This document shows positions 8,550 through 17,239 of a stretch of DNA of 17,459 nt, in pieces (within the stretch, counting starts at the first letter, position 1; the number at the start of each line of letters is the position of its first letter). The notes beneath the pieces were generated by a model, which saw only the letters and a program-made list of their open reading frames with translations, was not told where the DNA came from and did no database searches. Both the position numbers and the translations under genes were made by a program. Source of the stretch: an uncultured archaeon. Lineage in GTDB: Archaea > Iainarchaeota > Iainarchaeia > Iainarchaeales > CSSED10-239. The stretch is from positions 17,115-34,573 of the forward strand of contig CAYXWT010000005.1 in assembly GCA_964468895.1 (NCBI GenBank). The letters run 5' to 3'.

Positions 8550-11162
8550 TTAATCATATAAGTAATTTGGTCTACCTACAAGTTCAGATAAATTTTCACT
8601 ACTACTTCTCCACTTTTCATCAGTTAATCTATCATCCATATCCCAAGGAAATTCATAATAACTAAACATTGGACCAACAGCTAATCCAATTGAACCATCT
8701 TTAGATTTATGAGCTACAATTATCCAATCAATTCTACCTGTACCAACTTCTAAAACCTTTGAAGTGTTTCCTTCTGTATGAACATCAGCTATAATTTGAG
8801 TATTAAATGGATCATCTTCTGTAGACAATCTTGTTGAACTTATAGATCCTATTCCACTTTTTCCAACTTTAACTGTTAGAGCAGAAGCTAATTTTTCAAG
8901 TATATCTGTTAAACTTACAGAAATACTTTCTATATAATCATAATCTTCTTCACTTAGTTCTGTATTTTTTAATTCTTTTTTAGAAATTTCTTCTAATCTA
9001 CTAACTAAGTTTATACTATCATCAATAGGTTCTTTAAGTTTATTACTTAAAAGTTCTTTTTCTTCTAATCCATTTTTAAGTAATTCTAATGTTTTTTTTA
9101 ATCTAAAATAAGCTTCTGGATTTGGTTCTACATATCCATAATATTTAGAACTTAATGGACCCATAGCACCACAGGAAGTTCTAGAAGTATATGATTGTTT
9201 TACATAAAGAATTGTATCATGTCTTAGTTGAGCCCAAGAGCCAAGTGCAGTAATTAAATCTTTTTTCTCCCAAACTTTTGATCTCATCCAATTAGGATAG
9301 CCTATAGGTTTATCTTTTACAATTGGTTGAAGTACCCATAACCAAGAATTATATAAATTATCTGTCCAATCACTTACTGTATAACTATCAACTAAATTCT
9401 TAGAAGAATTTAATTGATTAGAATAATTACAAAAAGAATTATAATTTAAATCTGAAATTATTTCATCTGCACTATTAGAACCAAGTGAAGACATAATATC
9501 TAAACCAGTAGGCATAAATCTACAACTATTATATACTTTTTGTAATTTAGGATCATTATATTCTAAATTACAATTATAACCACAATAATAAACCATTGCT
9601 GATTCACAAACCTCATTCCAATACTTTTGTTTATTAGCATCCATACTTTCACAAGACTTATAAAAATCAACAGGTTGACTTAAAATAGAATTAATTTCAC
9701 CAAAATTTAATATATCATTATAATCACTATTATCTATATTAGGTCCTACATTTCTATATACCATATCTCCTAATATTTGTGAATCTATTGCATATCTTTG
9801 ACCAATTAGTCTCATACCTTTAGTTGTTTCTTCTAAAGAACCACTTAAATCAAATTCAAAATTATTAAGTATTTTAGGTCCTTTCATTTCACTAAGTTCT
9901 TCTTGAATATTATTAAACAATTCTTCATCACTTATAATATCTTCTTTACTTATATTAGAATCAGAAGAATCTTCAATAATATTATTTAAAGCCATATCAT
10001 AATCATAAAAACTTAAATCATCACTAACACCACTAAAAAAAGAAGTAACACTATATACTTTATTCCATTCATCATCAATATCAGCTGATTTTACAGCTTC
10101 AGAAAGTAAAAGTGCTTGTTTAGTCCAGTTTTCTCCATTAGTTTTAAAAGTAATTCTTCCAAGCCACATCATACTTTTAAAATAATTTTTTAATTCTTCA
10201 GTACTTGTATAATGACCTCTAGGAATATATTGTGAATAATCTTCACAATAACATTTTTTAGAACACACATCATTATACAAATCTACAAATTCTACTTCTT
10301 CTTCATTATAAATAACTTTTACTTTTATTTCAGAAGAACAAGAATTATCGTTTTTTAAATATAATACATTACTACAAACATTAGGACAATCTTTACTAAA
10401 CAATTCATTTTTATAAAAACCTTTATGAGCTTTTATTCTTCCAATTTCTTTATCTACATCCTCTTTAACCATACTTTTCACATTATAAGAAGGATCTAAT
10501 AATTTTAAAGCAACACTTAAATAAGCTAAATTTCTTTTAGATAATTCTTTATTTAAAGGATCTTCTAAAGATTCATATTGTTTATAACTTTCATTTATAC
10601 TTTTAGAAAGAAATTTGTCTAATAAATCAGACAATTCATTTATTTCTAGATTTTTAAGAATTTCATTAAATTCAATATGAAATAAATTCAAAACAGAATC
10701 TGTAGTTATAATAATAGGAACACCAGATCTATCTTCATTATACCTAGTAATCCAAGATTGGTTAGGACCTCTACTATTACTCATATGCTCATAAGCATCT
10801 TCGAATTTATTATATTTTTGTCCAAGAGTATCTCCTGGTATAATAACAACACCATTATCAAGAAGAGTTTGTGTTTCGTTTTCATTTAAATTTAAATTAA
10901 ACTTACCTTTAATATCTCTAATATAGTTTATTGGCATTTCTTCTAAAGGAAGTTCATATTCTGGATTATTATAATTTTCAGAAATATAATTTATATTTTC
11001 ATCATCACTAACATTAATCAGTCTTACATTTTCAAAAGTTTTATTTGAAAATTCATAATTTCCAGAACTTAAAGACAAATTAGTTCCAAAAATATTAAAT
11101 ACAAAAATAGCAGCTATAATAATAACAATAATAAATATAATTCCAAAAAAATTCTTATTTAT
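8550..11162 (-). CDS. Large Cys-rich secreted or membrane-anchored protein, DUF3160-like
   Basis: Uninterrupted 842-codon ORF in AT-rich DNA. NGVVIIPGD..., VPIIITTDSVLNLFHIEF and IPRGHYTSTEELKNYFKSMMWLGR match my recollection of DUF3160. The same frame stays open upstream of the track's TTG 11078 and encodes NKNFFGIIFIIVIIIAAIFVFNIFGTN (a signal anchor). There is no in-frame ATG. ATA 11160-11162 is preceded by TGAGAT plus 4 nt. Confidence 0.8.
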   Translation of the reverse strand: MNKNFFGIIFIIVIIIAAIFVFNIFGTNLSLSSGNYEFSNKTFENVRLINVSDDENINYISENYNNPEYELPLEEMPINYIRDIKGKFNLNLNENETQTLLDNGVVIIPGDTLGQKYNKFEDAYEHMSNSRGPNQSWITRYNEDRSGVPIIITTDSVLNLFHIEFNEILKNLEINELSDLLDKFLSKSINESYKQYESLEDPLNKELSKRNLAYLSVALKLLDPSYNVKSMVKEDVDKEIGRIKAHKGFYKNELFSKDCPNVCSNVLYLKNDNSCSSEIKVKVIYNEEEVEFVDLYNDVCSKKCYCEDYSQYIPRGHYTSTEELKNYFKSMMWLGRITFKTNGENWTKQALLLSEAVKSADIDDEWNKVYSVTSFFSGVSDDLSFYDYDMALNNIIEDSSDSNISKEDIISDEELFNNIQEELSEMKGPKILNNFEFDLSGSLEETTKGMRLIGQRYAIDSQILGDMVYRNVGPNIDNSDYNDILNFGEINSILSQPVDFYKSCESMDANKQKYWNEVCESAMVYYCGYNCNLEYNDPKLQKVYNSCRFMPTGLDIMSSLGSNSADEIISDLNYNSFCNYSNQLNSSKNLVDSYTVSDWTDNLYNSWLWVLQPIVKDKPIGYPNWMRSKVWEKKDLITALGSWAQLRHDTILYVKQSYTSRTSCGAMGPLSSKYYGYVEPNPEAYFRLKKTLELLKNGLEEKELLSNKLKEPIDDSINLVSRLEEISKKELKNTELSEEDYDYIESISVSLTDILEKLASALTVKVGKSGIGSISSTRLSTEDDPFNTQIIADVHTEGNTSKVLEVGTGRIDWIIVAHKSKDGSIGLAVGPMFSYYEFPWDMDDRLTDEKWRSSSENLSELVGRPNYLYD

Positions 11163-11281: not shown

Positions 11282-11972
11282 TCAGATATTTACAATTTTA
11301 TCAATGTTTTTATTTAAATATTTAATAAAATCACCTTTAGTCTTAGATTTTAATTTATACCAATCCAAATAAAGATTTCTAATATTATCTTCTAGTTTAT
11401 TCAAAATTTCAAATTTTTTAGAACCATATTTAGTATAATAATAATTATCCCACAATTTAGAAGTAAAACCAAATTTAAACTTAAATATATTAGTTATAGT
11501 ACTTACAAAACATTCTTCAAAATAAATCTAATTTAAACAATCTTTATTATCTTTAATTGATTTAATTAACTCTTGATAAATTTCATCTTTTTGATTAATA
11601 CAATGTGCTAATTCATGAAACATAGTAGAAAAAATCCTTTTTTTTCTAAGTATTATTTTCCTAATCATAAATTTCACTTCTTTTAGCATAAGGAGAAATA
11701 ACTAAAATAAAACCATCTATAAAAGCATGACCTGTATAACCACTCATACCAGTTGGTCCAATAGCACTAAAACATTTAAAATTAAGATTATCTTCTAAAT
11801 TATAAATCTGACTTAAAAAGTTTATTTTTTTCAAAATCTCATTTTTAAAGTCTTTAAATAAACTATTTACTTATACTATTAAATCTAAATTTATATGATT
11901 TATATTAATAGCATTCAAAAATTAATTAATAAAAACTAATTCTTTTCTTAAGTAATTATTAGATAATCTTAA
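11282..11972 (-). pseudogene. Decayed HExxH zinc-peptidase-like gene (possibly DUF2268-like); the 5' limit is approximate
   Basis: Minus-strand fragments read as follows:
- ...LRLSNNYLRKELVFIN-TAA-FLNAININHINLDLIV-TAA-VNSLFKDFKNEILKKINFLSQIYNLEDNLNFKCFSAIGPTGMSGYTGHAFIDGFILVISPYAKRSEIYD-TAG
- frameshift
- MIRKIILRKKRIFSTMFHELAHCINQKDEIYQELIKSIKDNKDCLN-TAG-IYFEECFVSTITNIFKFKFGFTSKLWDNYYYTKYGSKKFEILNKLEDNIRNLYLDWYKLKSKTKGDFIKYLNKNIDKIVNI-TGA
Such long open stretches are unexpected for non-coding AT-rich DNA. Confidence 0.5.
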
Positions 11973-12150: not shown

Positions 12151-13656
12151 TTAAAGATCCCAAATACATTTGCCATTAACTTTTCCAAAGTTATCCATAT
12201 TTTGAGTATAATTTTTAATAATAAGATAAGTTTTTTCAAAAGATGTATTAGCATTCTTCTTTTTATCTACATTAGTAATAATATTTAATATCTCTTTTCT
12301 ATCAATGTTTTTAAAATAATTAATAAAATCATTTTGAAGAATATTACAAAGACCATAAAAATAAGATTTTGCAAGTATTATATCTTTTTTATTTTTAGAA
12401 TCTAGATAATCTTTAATATAACTCCTCATACTCTTAACAGAATCTTTAAGTATATATTCAAGATTTTTAAAATCTTTATTTTTAATATATTTAACAATCT
12501 TATTTTTAATATTAATAAATTCTTTAGATTCATAAGAAGTAATATTACTAGTACCTTTTTTTTTAGTAAAATTAGTTTTTTTATTTAATAAAGAATTAAA
12601 ATATACTATAGAATTATTAGCATCTACAACAACTTCATCATTATCATTAGTATATTTTAATAATTCACTAATATTAATACCACCTATACAAGGAAGACCT
12701 AATTCTCTAGAAATTATAGCAGGATGAGATGTTACTGAATCAATTTCACATATAACAGCTTTTGCTTTTTTATAAACCTCTATATATTCTGGAAATAAAA
12801 CATAAGTTACGAGAATATTATTTTTTTTAAATAATTTACTAGCTTCTTTAAAATTAACAGCATCTGAAATAAATTGGATATTTCCTTTTACAAAACCATT
12901 TGATAAAGTAACACCTTTTATTTTAGAATTATATATCTTCTTATTTATAGAGTTTTGTAATTTATTTTCTTTAACTTTATTTAATTTACTTAAAGTAGTA
13001 ATATTTCTACTTTGAAGTATCCAAATATTATTTTCTTTATCAATAGCAAATTCAATATCTTGAGGGTACTTAAAACTCAATTCTATATCTTGCCCAAATA
13101 AATATAACTTTTTAAAGATTTTATTTAGATTTTTGGTTTTATTAATTTTTAGAGAATTTTCTTTACCAGAAACTAAGTTATGTAGATGTCCAAAAACATA
13201 TTCTATTAAAAAATTAGATTTACCTATAGGATCTTTGGTAAAATAAACTCCAGAAATACTTGTAATTATTTGTTTTTGTACAATTACTCCTAAATCATCA
13301 TTTTTTGAACTTTTAATAACATCTAATATTGCTAAAAACAATTCTTCTTCTGAATTTACATTAATTATACTTTTATATTTTCCAGCTAGAGAACAATCAT
13401 TAGAGTCTTCTAATAAACCACTACTTCTAACAACTATAGGAAAAGTAGGTTTTGAAAAAATACAATCATAAAGATAATTTAAAATTTCAGTTTTATATTT
13501 TTTTAAAAGACCTTTTTTTTTAATATTATTAACTAAATATGTATCTAAAACAAATCCATTAGGCACATTATAAGAAAATCTTTTTAATTTCATTAAATTA
13601 TATGCTTTATTACCAATTGTTTTAGAATCAACAAGAGAGTATAAATTATAAATCAT
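12151..13656 (-). CDS. PEP-utilising-type phosphotransferase: PPDK_N-like ATP-grasp domain, phosphohistidine swivel domain, and an uncharacterised ~140-aa C-terminal region
   Basis: N-terminus SKTIGNKAYNLMKL...VVRSSGLLEDS...SLAGKYKS matches the PEP/pyruvate-binding (nucleotide-binding) domain. SVTSHPAIISRELGLPCIGG is the PEP-utilisers mobile-domain His motif. No TIM-barrel PEP-binding domain is evident. The start overlaps the rSAM gene's end by 11 nt. Confidence 0.85.
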   Translation of the reverse strand: MIYNLYSLVDSKTIGNKAYNLMKLKRFSYNVPNGFVLDTYLVNNIKKKGLLKKYKTEILNYLYDCIFSKPTFPIVVRSSGLLEDSNDCSLAGKYKSIINVNSEEELFLAILDVIKSSKNDDLGVIVQKQIITSISGVYFTKDPIGKSNFLIEYVFGHLHNLVSGKENSLKINKTKNLNKIFKKLYLFGQDIELSFKYPQDIEFAIDKENNIWILQSRNITTLSKLNKVKENKLQNSINKKIYNSKIKGVTLSNGFVKGNIQFISDAVNFKEASKLFKKNNILVTYVLFPEYIEVYKKAKAVICEIDSVTSHPAIISRELGLPCIGGINISELLKYTNDNDEVVVDANNSIVYFNSLLNKKTNFTKKKGTSNITSYESKEFINIKNKIVKYIKNKDFKNLEYILKDSVKSMRSYIKDYLDSKNKKDIILAKSYFYGLCNILQNDFINYFKNIDRKEILNIITNVDKKKNANTSFEKTYLIIKNYTQNMDNFGKVNGKCIWDL

Positions 13657-14821
13657 TATATTTCACATCATAAAATTTTAAAATTTGCGGATAATTTTTA
13701 AGAACATATTTCTTATATTTACAATTTATTTTTGAATTATATAATCCTTTATATATACAACCAACACAGTAATTATAAAATTCACAATCTCCACAAATCT
13801 CTTTATTAGGTTCAGGAATTTTGAATAAAAATGAATTTTCTAAAAAATTATCAGTATCATAAATATTTCCAATTTTAAAATTAAGTGGAAATAAAGCACA
13901 AGGTCTTATATCACCATTAGGTTCTATAGAACTATGTTTTAATAATAAACCACAATTTACTAAATTTATACGCATATCTTTTTTATTAAAATCTTCTAAA
14001 TTATTATTAACAAATTTCTCAATATATGTTAGTTCAGTTATTTTATTTTTACCTCTACCTATTGGTGAAACATATGAAAAATCAACTAGTTTAACTCCTA
14101 ATTCGAATAATTTTTTTGTAACAATATCCTTTTGATCTAAATTATAATCAATATCTGTACATATAATTCTTAGAGGTAGATATTTTTTTAATTCTAATAT
14201 AGTTTTACGTAAATAAAAATCATTATCATCAATTTTGTTTATATCTCTAAACCAACGATTAAAACTCATACTAATATTTAATTTATTTAAATTAATAATA
14301 TTTATAGATTTTAATAGTTTACTTAAAATAGATGTGTTTGTTCCATTAGTTATCAATTCCACAGATTCAAAATTGTTTAACAAAAAACACATAAAATCAA
14401 CAAAATTTCTATGTAATGTAGGTTCTCCTCCAGTAACACAAATTTCTCTTAAACCTTTATCTTTAAAAAACAACAATCTTTTTTTAATTTTTTCAACATC
14501 ACAAAAATTACTATCTAAATTAAATTTAGCATCACGATAACAATAATCACAATTTAAATTACAACTATCTGTTAATTCAATTTGAAAATATAAAGGATAC
14601 ATTTCATTAACAGAACCTATAATTTCAAAATCATGGTTATAAATATTATTATTATTAAAAAAAGAAATTACAAAATCTGAGATTTTATTTTTTTTATAAT
14701 TTATAAATTCTACATTAGCAGATTTATTAAAAACATAAATATGAGAATCTCTAAAACCTAAATTATTATTAAAATAAATTAAAAAATAAGAAAAAAAAGG
14801 TGTTCTATAATAATATTGCAT
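13646..14821 (-). CDS. Radical SAM enzyme with a C-terminal SPASM-like domain (peptide maturase candidate)
   Basis: CNLNCDYC (CxxxCxxC), GGEPTLH, and a C-terminal Cys cluster (CALFPLNFKIGNI ... CGDCEFYNYCVGC). An ~85-aa extension lies N-terminal to the SAM cluster. ATG 14821 is preceded by GTTGAT plus 4 nt; the track starts at TTG 14833. Confidence 0.9.
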   Translation of the reverse strand: MQYYYRTPFFSYFLIYFNNNLGFRDSHIYVFNKSANVEFINYKKNKISDFVISFFNNNNIYNHDFEIIGSVNEMYPLYFQIELTDSCNLNCDYCYRDAKFNLDSNFCDVEKIKKRLLFFKDKGLREICVTGGEPTLHRNFVDFMCFLLNNFESVELITNGTNTSILSKLLKSINIINLNKLNISMSFNRWFRDINKIDDNDFYLRKTILELKKYLPLRIICTDIDYNLDQKDIVTKKLFELGVKLVDFSYVSPIGRGKNKITELTYIEKFVNNNLEDFNKKDMRINLVNCGLLLKHSSIEPNGDIRPCALFPLNFKIGNIYDTDNFLENSFLFKIPEPNKEICGDCEFYNYCVGCIYKGLYNSKINCKYKKYVLKNYPQILKFYDVKYNDL

Positions 14822-14826
14822 GATAA

Positions 14827-14919
14827 TCAACAAGGTTTATTTCCACAGGTACCTCTATTAAATGCAACACTATGTACAACACCAATAAATTTTGGTATAT
14901 TTGAATCATCTGAATCCAA
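14827..14919 (-). CDS. Unannotated 30-aa peptide, candidate RiPP precursor
   Basis: Hand translation: (M/L)DSDDSNIPKFIGVVHSVAFNRGTCGNKPC-TGA. GAGGTGAT, 4 nt, then TTG 14919, the same spacing as other genes here. The stop lies 5 nt before the rSAM ATG. The frame is open back to GTG 14955, so the peptide could be up to 42 aa. Confidence 0.55.
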   Translation of the reverse strand: MDSDDSNIPKFIGVVHSVAFNRGTCGNKPC

Positions 14920-15038
14920 AATAATCACCTCATAAATTATAGAACCAAACAACACTTAAATACTAGCATTAATCTAAAAATTATTTAAATAACAAATTAC
15001 AAGTAATATCTTTAAACACTACTTAGACAATATTAAAA

Positions 15039-15094: not shown

Positions 15095-15544
15095 TTAAAA
15101 AAAATCTTTAAATTCAGATATAATTTTATCCATAATTTCTTTTTGACGAGGAAATTTCAAATACTTTACAAAATTGTCCTTATTTACAAAAACAAATCCA
15201 CTAACTTCTTCTTCTTGCAATTTGATATCATCAATATTACTTTTAATTTTAGCTATAAAAATACTTCTTATTTGACCTTCATATCTTATACCTACTTGTT
15301 TATATTTATGTTCAATAGCATATTTTGGCCAATCAAATTTTTCTATAATAGTACTTTTTTCTAATATTTCAATATCTACATCAAGTTCTTCTTTCATTTC
15401 TCTTTTAAGTGCTAATTCATCAGATTCATTATCTTCAACACCTCCAGCAGGTATTTTATAATAATCTGGTTCACCAGTAGATTGTACTAAAACAAATTCT
15501 TTTTTATCATTAAATAAAAAAGCACTAACACCTTTTCTATACAT
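15095..15544 (-). CDS. NUDIX hydrolase
   Basis: Nudix box GGGVEDNESDELALKREMKEELDV (Gx5Ex7REUxEExGU). GAGGTGAT, 4 nt, then ATG 15544. Confidence 0.9.
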   Translation of the reverse strand: MYRKGVSAFLFNDKKEFVLVQSTGEPDYYKIPAGGVEDNESDELALKREMKEELDVDIEILEKSTIIEKFDWPKYAIEHKYKQVGIRYEGQIRSIFIAKIKSNIDDIKLQEEEVSGFVFVNKDNFVKYLKFPRQKEIMDKIISEFKDFF

Positions 15545-15715: not shown

Positions 15716-17239
15716 CTAATTACCTTCAATATAATTTTTACCTTTTAAAGTAATTTTATACCTTTGATTAGGATCTCTTGGGCTATTTGGATTATTCATT
15801 TCAATAAAACCAAAATCTAATAACTTTTTTAAAGATGTTCTAAAATTTCTAGTTCTAGATTTATATCCTAAATAATTTAAAATATATTTTATAGCAACCA
15901 AATTTTTATTATTAATAAATTTAATTATTTTCAAATCAATATCTATAAAACTTACTTGGACCCCTACTTGGACCCCTGCTTGGACCCCTAAAGATATATC
16001 TTTAATTTTCTTTTTAAACTCAGGATGAATCTCAAATTTAGTAATAAATTGACATCTCTCATCATCAGTAATAAAAACAGGTTTTGGAGAACCATTTATT
16101 CTTAAAGAATCTCTTATTTTTTTAAAACCAGTATTTCTTCCTTCAGTAAAATGTAATTCTTTTAGAAAATCTCCTATTCTTCTATTTCTATATCTTCTAG
16201 AAATAACAACATCATCATTAATATTATTTTTATTTAATGGAGGCATAGGTCCAGGATAACTAGTAATATATGTTTTGTCTAGTTCAACTCTTACTTCAAT
16301 AGGAGCATCAATTTCATAATCTTTATGGTAAACAGCATTAACTAATGCTTCTTCAATAGCAACAAATGGATAGGAATAAAATCTTAAACTTTCAGCTTTA
16401 TTTGGAACTTTTCTTACTTTTTCTATAATCACATTATTTTTTATAAACTGAAGTGCACCTCTTATTTGAGAAATAACATCTCCAGAAAATATTTTTTCTT
16501 CAAAATTATCTCCAATTTTATCATGAAAAACAGTAACTTCAATCCAAGGAGTTTTAATATATTTTTTAGGTTCTCTAGAAAATAAAAGTAAACCAATATT
16601 TTTTGGTTTTATATATTCATTAGGTCCATCTATAATATTTAAACTTTTATAAATTTCTATAGGTTTTAGTTTATTTATATCTAAATTTGAATTTGTTTCT
16701 TTTAAAAAAGAACTTATTAGATTTAGATCTAAATCAGAAAGTTCAGCTTTAAGATTAATTCTATCATCAAAAGGAATATTTTGAGACATAGAAATTAATT
16801 CTCTTTCTTCATCAGGTTTTGCTATAACTGTAGAAGCTCCTCTTCTAATATAATATATATATCTAGGTTTTTTACCTAAAGATTCAGGACATTTATAAGG
16901 TCTACTTGGACCACCATAACAATATAAAACTATTAAAAATTTACTTTTATATTCTACAACATCCATTATTGGAAAATAAGGATAAATAATTTTATTAGAT
17001 AATTCAATTAATTTTTTTAAAATAAAATCTATTTTTGACTTTTCAACACCCACTACTTCTTTAGTATCATTATCTATACCTATTATTAGATATCCTCCAC
17101 CCCAATTATTAAAATCATTAGCAAAAGCACACATAGTGTGCATAACTTCTATTGGATTAAAACCTTTTTTTAATTCTAATCTTTCATGTTCTATTATATT
17201 TTCTTTTAATAAAACATCAATCTTAATCGGAATAGGCAT
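15716..17239 (-). CDS. AlbA_2 (Schlafen-like) + HATPase_c_4 + C-terminal wHTH protein (often mis-annotated as 'RecG-like' or putative transcriptional regulator)
   Basis: N-terminus EHERLELKKGFNP...AFANDFNNWGGGYLIIGI (AlbA_2). EEALVNAVYHKDYEIDAPIEVRVELDKTYITSYPGPMPP (HATPase_c_4). C-terminus ...SPRDPNQRYKITLKGKNY (wHTH). Confidence 0.85.
   Translation of the reverse strand: MPIPIKIDVLLKENIIEHERLELKKGFNPIEVMHTMCAFANDFNNWGGGYLIIGIDNDTKEVVGVEKSKIDFILKKLIELSNKIIYPYFPIMDVVEYKSKFLIVLYCYGGPSRPYKCPESLGKKPRYIYYIRRGASTVIAKPDEERELISMSQNIPFDDRINLKAELSDLDLNLISSFLKETNSNLDINKLKPIEIYKSLNIIDGPNEYIKPKNIGLLLFSREPKKYIKTPWIEVTVFHDKIGDNFEEKIFSGDVISQIRGALQFIKNNVIIEKVRKVPNKAESLRFYSYPFVAIEEALVNAVYHKDYEIDAPIEVRVELDKTYITSYPGPMPPLNKNNINDDVVISRRYRNRRIGDFLKELHFTEGRNTGFKKIRDSLRINGSPKPVFITDDERCQFITKFEIHPEFKKKIKDISLGVQAGVQVGVQVSFIDIDLKIIKFINNKNLVAIKYILNYLGYKSRTRNFRTSLKKLLDFGFIEMNNPNSPRDPNQRYKITLKGKNYIEGN
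15954..15989. repeat. Three tandem 12-nt GC-rich repeats inside the AlbA_2 gene, encoding (GVQx)3
   Basis: acttggacccct / acttggacccct / gcttggacccct. On the minus strand this encodes GVQAGVQVGVQV, between the HATPase_c_4 and wHTH regions. Confidence 0.9.

Follow-up and report, generated by a model that had tools for sequence, protein, structure and literature searches.

The window analysed here is the whole 17,459-nucleotide stretch of contig CAYXWT010000005.1 (assembly GCA_964468895.1) from an uncultured archaeon, and the subject of this work is a 30-codon gene on its minus strand together with the two genes that follow it. The small gene (14827..14919, minus strand) runs from TTG GAT TCA to CCT TGT TGA, the stop codon TGA occupying 14829-14827; it translates as (M/L)DSDDSNIPKFIGVVHSVAFNRGTCGNKPC-stop, and the product with its initiator residue is (f)MDSDDSNIPKFIGVVHSVAFNRGTCGNKPC. 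Its N-terminal stretch is acidic and its C-terminus carries two cysteines in a C-x4-C arrangement. Exactly 4 nt before TTG 14919 lies the Shine-Dalgarno octamer GAGGTGAT (14924..14931, minus strand), which we take, from general knowledge, to be a perfect 8-nt complement to the 3' end of 16S rRNA, the anti-Shine-Dalgarno sequence. The second gene (13646..14821, minus strand) encodes a putative radical S-adenosylmethionine (radical-SAM)/SPASM peptide maturase of 391 aa (Pfam Radical_SAM and SPASM); its start codon, ATG 14821, lies 5 nt past the peptide stop and is not preceded by a separate Shine-Dalgarno site. The third gene (12151..13656, minus strand) encodes a 501-aa dikinase resembling phosphoenolpyruvate (PEP) synthase (Pfam PPDK_N and PEP-utilizers, lacking PF02896), and its start overlaps the radical-SAM stop by 11 nt, an overlap also frequent in other loci. 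A preliminary description of this DNA had already read the small open reading frame (ORF), with its TTG start, translation, spacing of the Shine-Dalgarno site, acidic N-terminal stretch, C-x4-C motif and nearby radical-SAM gene, in this way, and the sequence agrees with it on all these points.

The octamer occurs twice in the window, both strands considered, while shuffled sequences contain it 0.18 times on average and reach two copies in 4 of 200 cases. Both copies are positioned 4 nt before a start codon, the second one preceding ATG 15544 of a NUDIX gene. The site of the peptide gene, described earlier as the strongest in the window, is indeed strong with its 8 nt, but it ties with the NUDIX copy and is not the single strongest. 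A related site, GGTGAT-N4, precedes a third gene at ATG 6292, and the remaining three GGTGAT sites of the window are within coding sequence, none of them before a start codon; the five other genes said to share this geometry are therefore reduced to two, NUDIX 15544 and ATG 6292. A Shine-Dalgarno site is recognisable in only 3 of about 16 window genes; ahead of most starts the sequence is A/T-rich and free of purine tracts. Because most genes of the window lack such a site, the strong one of the peptide gene, like that of the NUDIX gene, stands out as deliberate. The GC content of the window is 20-27% throughout, and the GC-richer islands previously taken as a sign of selection carry no weight alone, being the Gly, Cys and Pro codons of a 21% GC genome. 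At this composition a scan for promoters and terminators was uninformative (51 promoter-like sites against 51 expected, 0 terminators), and neither tRNA genes nor Rfam families were found within the window.

The closest relative is locus L005, whose enzyme is 76% identical and whose peptide is MDSKDSDKSKFIGVVHSVAFNRGTCGNKPC. This locus has ATG where the window peptide has TTG, preceded by the same GAGGTGAT octamer, while the remaining intergenic region is not alignable with the window. An in-frame TAA is located six codons upstream of the ATG in L005, and a 42-aa version of the peptide initiated at GTG 14955, the upper length considered earlier, is not supported on these grounds. Over peptide residues 10-30 the two loci show three synonymous changes, end in different stop codons and are otherwise the same, and all four amino-acid replacements fall within residues 1-9. 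Since residues 10-30 change only synonymously, and since the start and the Shine-Dalgarno site are kept, the pattern reads as the signature of a translated gene that is relaxed at its N-terminus and constrained at its C-terminus. Synonymous variation is also seen when nine loci are compared: conserved residues are encoded by AGA, AGG or CGG for Arg, TGT or TGC for Cys, GGA, GGG, GGT or GGC for Gly, AAA or AAG for Lys, and CCT or CCC for Pro. The comparison of synonymous and nonsynonymous changes, which had been put forward as a check, thus speaks for the gene.

Genomic context was compared for eight radical-SAM homologues and, separately, for two peptide homologues. Each of the 11 distinct loci, whose enzymes range from 76% down to 37% identity, has a homologous, co-oriented small ORF 2-28 nt upstream of its radical-SAM orthologue, and this peptide ORF is intact and keeps its position and orientation throughout. 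An absent or interrupted ORF at orthologous loci, named in the preliminary description as the finding that would overturn its proposal, was encountered at none of the 11. The C-terminal parts of the peptides illustrate the conservation: ...PKVLDDFEGILFERGSCGNKPC in L009, ...PQILDDYEGIIYIRGACGNKPC in L175, ...IINLRGTCGEKPCKGKYQ in L007, ...IIWMRSSCGNKPCKGHYQ in L008, ...ILWARMNCGKLPCKGKYS in L171 and ...SKFEARKWCGNKAC in L172. Four metagenome contigs that encode an identical radical-SAM protein have an identical peptide region, which was never called as a gene, and peptide homologues on other contigs were predicted by gene callers. With only 30 codons, a TTG start and no call on those four contigs, the ORF might be thought a chance untranslated frame in AT-rich intergenic DNA, but its homologues are called elsewhere, the motif is preserved through synonymous codon changes and the Shine-Dalgarno site is retained. 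We consider the probability of a chance ORF practically negligible; as far as sequence evidence goes, the comparative data already refute it, and they show the 30-codon ORF to be a genuine and conserved gene.

Based on the alignments, the peptide can be divided into a leader region (residues 1-21; 14857..14919, minus strand) and a core region, R22-G-T-C25-G26-N-K-P-C30 (14830..14856, minus strand), the boundary between them being placed by inference. Residues 1-9 of the leader are acidic and variable, and residues 8-21 align to a P-x-hydrophobic-hydrophobic ... aromatic-x segment of the family. R22, C25, G26 and C30 are invariant in a 12-sequence alignment. An exhaustive HMMER profile search through 1.84 billion cluster representatives disclosed 21 proteins at E <= 0.001, all of them small proteins of 30-85 aa; a word-indexed search of a 5.8-billion-sequence collection with the peptide profile returned 11 called proteins, likewise within this size range and with the motif at the C-terminus. 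The consensus R-x-x(-x)-C-[G/D]-x-x-[P/A]-C recurs in all 21 members of the profile search, where it lies at the C-terminus or close to it, and the position of G26 is D in one of them. The motif is followed by a stop or by a tail, which takes the form K-G-[K/H/Y/E/N]-Y-[Q/S/E] in about two thirds of these members. Leaders of 21-76 residues share little identity among them, in contrast to the nearly invariant C-terminal core.

None of the 12 aligned peptides matched an NCBIfam model at E up to 1, and Pfam gave four isolated, unrelated matches, each to one peptide and with E of 0.026 or worse. In the full-text literature we found no paper describing this peptide family, none joining radical-SAM-modified RiPPs (peptides made by the ribosome and altered after translation) with enzymes resembling PEP synthase, pyruvate phosphate dikinase (PPDK) or rifampin phosphotransferase, and none describing such a cassette of radical-SAM and PpsA-like genes in archaea. 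A survey of archaeal RiPPs from 2025 mentions predicted radical-SAM RiPP clusters across archaeal superphyla and notes that functional characterisation of the predicted clusters is still limited (PMC12144867). Judged by sequence, the peptides represent a rare new family within a known kind, the radical-SAM-modified ribosomal peptides. A viral origin was considered and rejected: the degenerate pattern G-[ST]-C-G-N-K-P-C has two matches on viral contigs, neither of which is in a comparable short ORF with a family leader or has a radical-SAM or dikinase gene nearby.

The orthologue alignment confirms ATG 14821, and not TTG 14833, as the start of the maturase. In the protein search this enzyme belongs to a compact family of about 23 radical-SAM proteins (37-76% identity), after which similarity drops sharply to generic AlbA-like proteins at <=28%. 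Contig scans through genomes and metagenomes with the generic radical-SAM patterns TGGEPT and CNLxCxYCY yielded distant proteins only (21-40% partial identity) and no family member. Orthologues keep the cluster-motif cysteines C87-x3-C91-x2-C94 without exception; among the seven SPASM cysteines, C290 and C308 are invariant and C343, C346, C352, C355 and C367 are at least 90% conserved. The SPASM model TIGR04085 scores 33.5 bits against a cut-off of 27. The best NCBIfam match of the whole protein is AlbA (NF012164; 85.5 bits against a cut-off of 850), and SkfB (TIGR04403) and PapB score 40.9 bits against 300 and 53.4 bits against 340, respectively; the cut-offs of the sactipeptide maturase families (AlbA, SkfB) are not reached. 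By sequence, the best match in the PDB is SkfB (6efn, 1.3e-15, 16% identity).

In the AlphaFold2 (AF2) model of the maturase (mean predicted local distance difference test, pLDDT, 87.6), residues 1-57 form a beta-beta-beta-alpha-alpha unit ahead of the barrel with pLDDT >90; Pfam PqqD gave no match. Full-length Foldseek comparison places SkfB first (E 6.9e-15, TM 0.62), then SuiB with bound precursor, both of which we take to be RiPP maturases with an N-terminal RiPP recognition element (RRE). They are followed by anSME (4k39), the third distinct structural neighbour, and the epimerase EpeE. As modelled, the architecture is that of a RiPP maturase, composed of an RRE-like N-terminal domain, a radical-SAM core and a seven-cysteine SPASM domain. 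Separately, the radical-SAM gene of L179 (832-2015) and L180 (388-1571) is split into ORFs of 170 aa and 230 aa at about residue 157; as it is seen in two independent assemblies (ENA, Logan), the split is either genuine, as a frameshift or pseudogene, or an assembly error common to both.

An ORF so close to a radical-SAM gene without a Shine-Dalgarno site must influence the translation of that gene, and a C-x4-C pair could bind metal, so the small ORF could also be regarded as a regulatory upstream ORF or leader peptide, or as a metal- or Fe-S-binding accessory protein, instead of the substrate of the enzyme. We find either role very unlikely. The specific nine-residue C-terminal motif is kept under purifying selection where the enzymes are only 37-50% identical, two cysteines are too few for an Fe-S cluster, and the enzyme has an RRE-like peptide-binding domain and resembles peptide maturases. 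With a variable leader, a near-invariant core and an adjacent enzyme of RiPP-maturase architecture, the ORF product is very probably, as the preliminary description had proposed, the precursor on which the radical-SAM maturase acts.

The dikinase follows the radical-SAM gene in 9 of the 11 distinct loci. Its close homologues number about 20, are ~500 aa long and all lack PF02896; a gap separates them from genuine PEP synthases of ~755 aa with PF02896. Invariant in the family are His311 within T-S-H-P/A-A-I, Arg317 and Glu318. The AF2 model (pLDDT 86.7) is built of an ATP-grasp domain (1-222), a His domain (244-355) and a helical bundle (378-490); the bundle, family-specific and about 115 residues long, has invariant D464, Y477 and D488 and replaces the PEP/pyruvate-binding barrel. 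PPDK, PpsA, rifampin phosphotransferase and HpeI are the structural neighbours of this model. The ATP-grasp domain and the swivelling phospho-histidine domain with TSH are common to the PEP synthase/PPDK/rifampin phosphotransferase superfamily, and by analogy they predict a dikinase mechanism converting ATP to AMP and inorganic phosphate. The enzyme differs from these relatives in lacking both the PEP/pyruvate TIM barrel (PF02896) and the rifampin-binding insert, and in being encoded in a RiPP-like cassette. NCBIfam scores for PpsA are 120-124 bits against cut-offs of 598-740, and the rifampin phosphotransferase model gives 72 bits against 999; the His domain comes directly after ATP-grasp in the dikinase model, which departs from the domain order of rifampin phosphotransferase. 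One source labels the 501-aa protein "phosphoenolpyruvate synthase/pyruvate phosphate dikinase". Because the PEP/pyruvate-binding domain is absent, the PEP synthase label is probably a misannotation spread across the family of about 20 members.

Directly upstream of the cassette in L172 (59-2577) lie an unrelated radical-SAM gene, a 295-aa gene, a gene for a 102-aa stand-alone PEP-utilizers (swivel His) domain and a 156-aa gene. This set was considered as a duplicate cassette and dismissed, as hhalign finds no similarity to the dikinase family. The renewed occurrence of a radical-SAM gene beside a swivel domain is a curious recurrence.

Taken as a whole, the ORF is best read as the precursor of a previously undescribed radical-SAM-modified RiPP and as the first gene of a peptide/maturase/dikinase operon, a reading to which we assign a probability of roughly 80%. 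The following steps were derived from the anatomy of the genes and proteins and from established AlbA/SkfB-type maturases and PpsA-type dikinases. The strong Shine-Dalgarno site would direct a high level of peptide translation, and the maturase, which has no such site and starts 5 nt past the peptide stop, would for these reasons be made by translational coupling and at a lower level than the peptide. The hydrophobic segment of the leader (P-x-hydrophobic-hydrophobic ... aromatic-x-R) would dock as a strand on the RRE-like domain. The maturase would then cleave SAM to the 5'-deoxyadenosyl radical and, with a Cys thiolate bound at a SPASM auxiliary cluster, form one or two C-S (thioether) cross-links within the peptide via Cys25 and Cys30, in the manner of AlbA and SkfB. 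This thioether chemistry, proposed by analogy, is tentative, and we place it somewhat short of even odds. Residues between the cysteines vary, which makes a link to a specific side chain (NxxC, Cx3D) unlikely as a rule of the family; an alpha-carbon (sactionine-type) link, or one to the conserved aromatic residue two positions before Arg, would be favoured. As a family feature, the NxxC motif of ranthipeptides was discarded, as the residue three places ahead of the last Cys varies (N, E, S, K, G, T or R).

In the final step, the dikinase would autophosphorylate His311 from ATP and pass the phosphate to an oxygen or sulfur of the peptide or modified peptide held by its C-terminal helical domain, the products being a phosphopeptide, AMP and inorganic phosphate. 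Whether the dikinase acts on the peptide at all is, in our estimate, evenly balanced. Because the unmodified core has no conserved hydroxyl residue, the acceptor would be limited to a thiol or guanidinium, to the Tyr of the tail that some members have, or to a group that the radical step creates. A lanthipeptide-like route, with phosphorylation of Ser/Thr before Cys25 and elimination, was also rejected, since other members have A, N, W, V, Y or K there.

To our knowledge, phosphorylation by the PpsA-like dikinase superfamily is directed at an oxygen in all members that have been characterised (pyruvate enolate, rifampin OH, phenol, glucan OH). This bears on a different course of events, in which the maturase acts like anSME and converts one Cys to a formylglycine-type aldehyde or enol, the new oxygen of which is then phosphorylated by the dikinase. 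Such a course would fit an unmodified core without a conserved hydroxyl, where the radical-SAM step may have to create the acceptor, as well as the use of enol or phenol oxygens by PpsA, PigC and phenylphosphate synthase and the place of anSME among the structural neighbours, directly after SkfB and SuiB. However, the core has no C/S-x-P/A-x-R sulfatase motif, the maturase is nearer in sequence to AlbA and SkfB than to anSME, and anSME lacks the RRE domain of which the maturase has a likeness. Being purely speculative and without RiPP precedent, this course appears distinctly improbable.

Several observations weigh against the proposed RiPP operon and its chemistry. The core has no conserved Ser, Thr or Tyr and so offers no obvious phospho-acceptor, and the substrate of the dikinase might be something other than the peptide. 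In two of the 11 loci (L173/L174 and L178) no dikinase is adjacent and a convergent GNAT acetyltransferase is found there; therefore, the dikinase is not strictly required in cis. Thioether chemistry is suggested by distant homology only (AlbA at 85 against 850 bits, SkfB at 16% identity). In canonical sactipeptides the N-terminal half of the core holds several Cys, and the acceptors are C-terminal to them; in the present peptides, by contrast, both Cys are within the last 6-11 residues. The RRE-like domain is identified from model topology and whole-chain Foldseek matches, with no PqqD match in Pfam. Finally, no conserved protease, exporter or immunity gene was found across the 11 locus contexts.

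As in the sactipeptide systems AlbA/SboA (subtilosin) and SkfB/SkfA (sporulation killing factor), a small precursor gene adjoins a radical-SAM maturase with an RRE-like domain and auxiliary clusters, Cys are the conserved core residues, and the best matches are AlbA in NCBIfam and SkfB in the PDB, by sequence as well as by fold. Differences from them include only two Cys, spaced C-x4-C at the extreme C-terminus, no hairpin-type core with downstream acceptors, no ABC transporter or protease, and a maturase score far under the family cut-off; we also know of no dikinase in sactipeptide clusters. Ranthipeptides (PapB/freyrasin with Cx3D, NxxcB with an N-x-x-C beta-thioether, SCIFF/CteB) share the SPASM maturase and short Cys motifs; the window peptide happens to hold N-K-P-C, an N-x-x-C motif, and PapB is among the weaker matches. 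Nevertheless, the family has neither a conserved acceptor at fixed spacing from Cys (Cx3D/E or NxxC) nor Asp/Glu repeat motifs. Streptide (SuiB/SuiA) and mycofactocin (MftC/MftA) resemble the present system in the SPASM enzyme, here with an RRE-like domain, the short C-terminal motif and the small peptide encoded directly upstream. The core, however, lacks the Lys/Trp pair of streptide and the C-terminal Gly-Val-Tyr of mycofactocin, no separate MftB-like chaperone is present, and the partner enzymes differ from those of both systems.

The peptide might alternatively be a scaffold from which a cofactor or redox metabolite is made and used inside the cell, as with mycofactocin or pyrroloquinoline quinone (PQQ), and not a released bioactive product. 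In MftA and PqqA the modified region is at the extreme C-terminus, as it would be here. The 11 contexts have no conserved exporter, immunity gene or leader protease, His_Phos_1 phosphatase and NUDIX genes recur nearby, and the carriers appear to be small-genome uncultivated archaea, all of which would suit a cofactor. On the other hand, with ~20-26 clusters in databases of billions of proteins the family is very rare and of patchy occurrence, its spread over archaeal contigs and a bacterial contig better suits an accessory, horizontally moved trait, and no candidate cofactor-dependent enzyme co-occurs. We therefore judge a cofactor role unlikely, although it is the most probable of the alternatives considered.

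Named carriers of the cassette are "archaeon" metagenome-assembled genomes and Candidatus Marsarchaeota, and archaeal genes (ribosomal, aEF-1beta or RadA) are present on L008 and L175. UvrB and UvrC do not distinguish between the domains. Locus L173 encodes a genuine sigma-70 factor beside a protein weakly matching the archaeal proteasome beta subunit, so that at least one carrier contig looks bacterial or of mixed signal. The three-gene cassette is found mostly in uncultivated archaea.

Phosphohydrolase genes are located within ~2 kb of the cassette in several loci: NUDIX in the window (15095-15544, minus strand), two His_Phos_1 in L009 (7288-8479), and His_Phos_1 and NUDIX in L173 (6612-7743). 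Their recurrence may be a coincidence or may be tied to the phosphoryl chemistry of the dikinase. Between the dikinase and a DUF3160 gene, the window holds three short ORFs of 57, 53 and 57 aa (11282-11834, minus strand), also called on contigs L002 and L003, which resemble one HExxH metalloprotease-like gene (FHELAHCINQ) interrupted by a frameshift and a stop. At the corresponding place after the dikinase in L009 there is an intact 221-aa protein with HExxH (AAHEIMHLQFH) and negligible sequence similarity to the window ORFs. The latter could represent a decayed or recoded leader peptidase. The window flanks encode a 507-aa protein with SLFN_AlbA_2, HATPase_c_4 and Fic-like-C (15716-17239, minus strand) and the 842-aa DUF3160 protein (8550-11078, minus strand); both are probably unrelated to the cassette, because neither is kept beside it in other loci.

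A bolder proposal can also be made, against which we would wager, if not heavily. The family would be the first RiPP class with a PEP-synthase-type "peptide, water dikinase" as a core tailoring enzyme, placing phosphate on an oxygen or sulfur created or exposed after radical-SAM cross-linking or oxidation of the C-x4-C motif. Its product would be a small, phosphorylated, thioether-constrained peptide from ultra-small uncultivated archaea, exchanged with bacteria.

The results add a family of precursor peptides missed by current gene callers and curated hidden Markov model libraries, and they correct a likely "PEP synthase" misannotation. With three genes and a 30-residue substrate, the cassette is directly testable by heterologous expression. 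Its pairing of a radical-SAM maturase with a PpsA-like dikinase devoid of the PEP domain, unreported in ribosomal peptide biosynthesis, points to new enzymology. The family is placed mainly in archaea that are uncultivated and very AT-rich, a group with almost no known natural products, and it is set apart by its unprecedented partner enzyme and by its host range in microbial dark matter.

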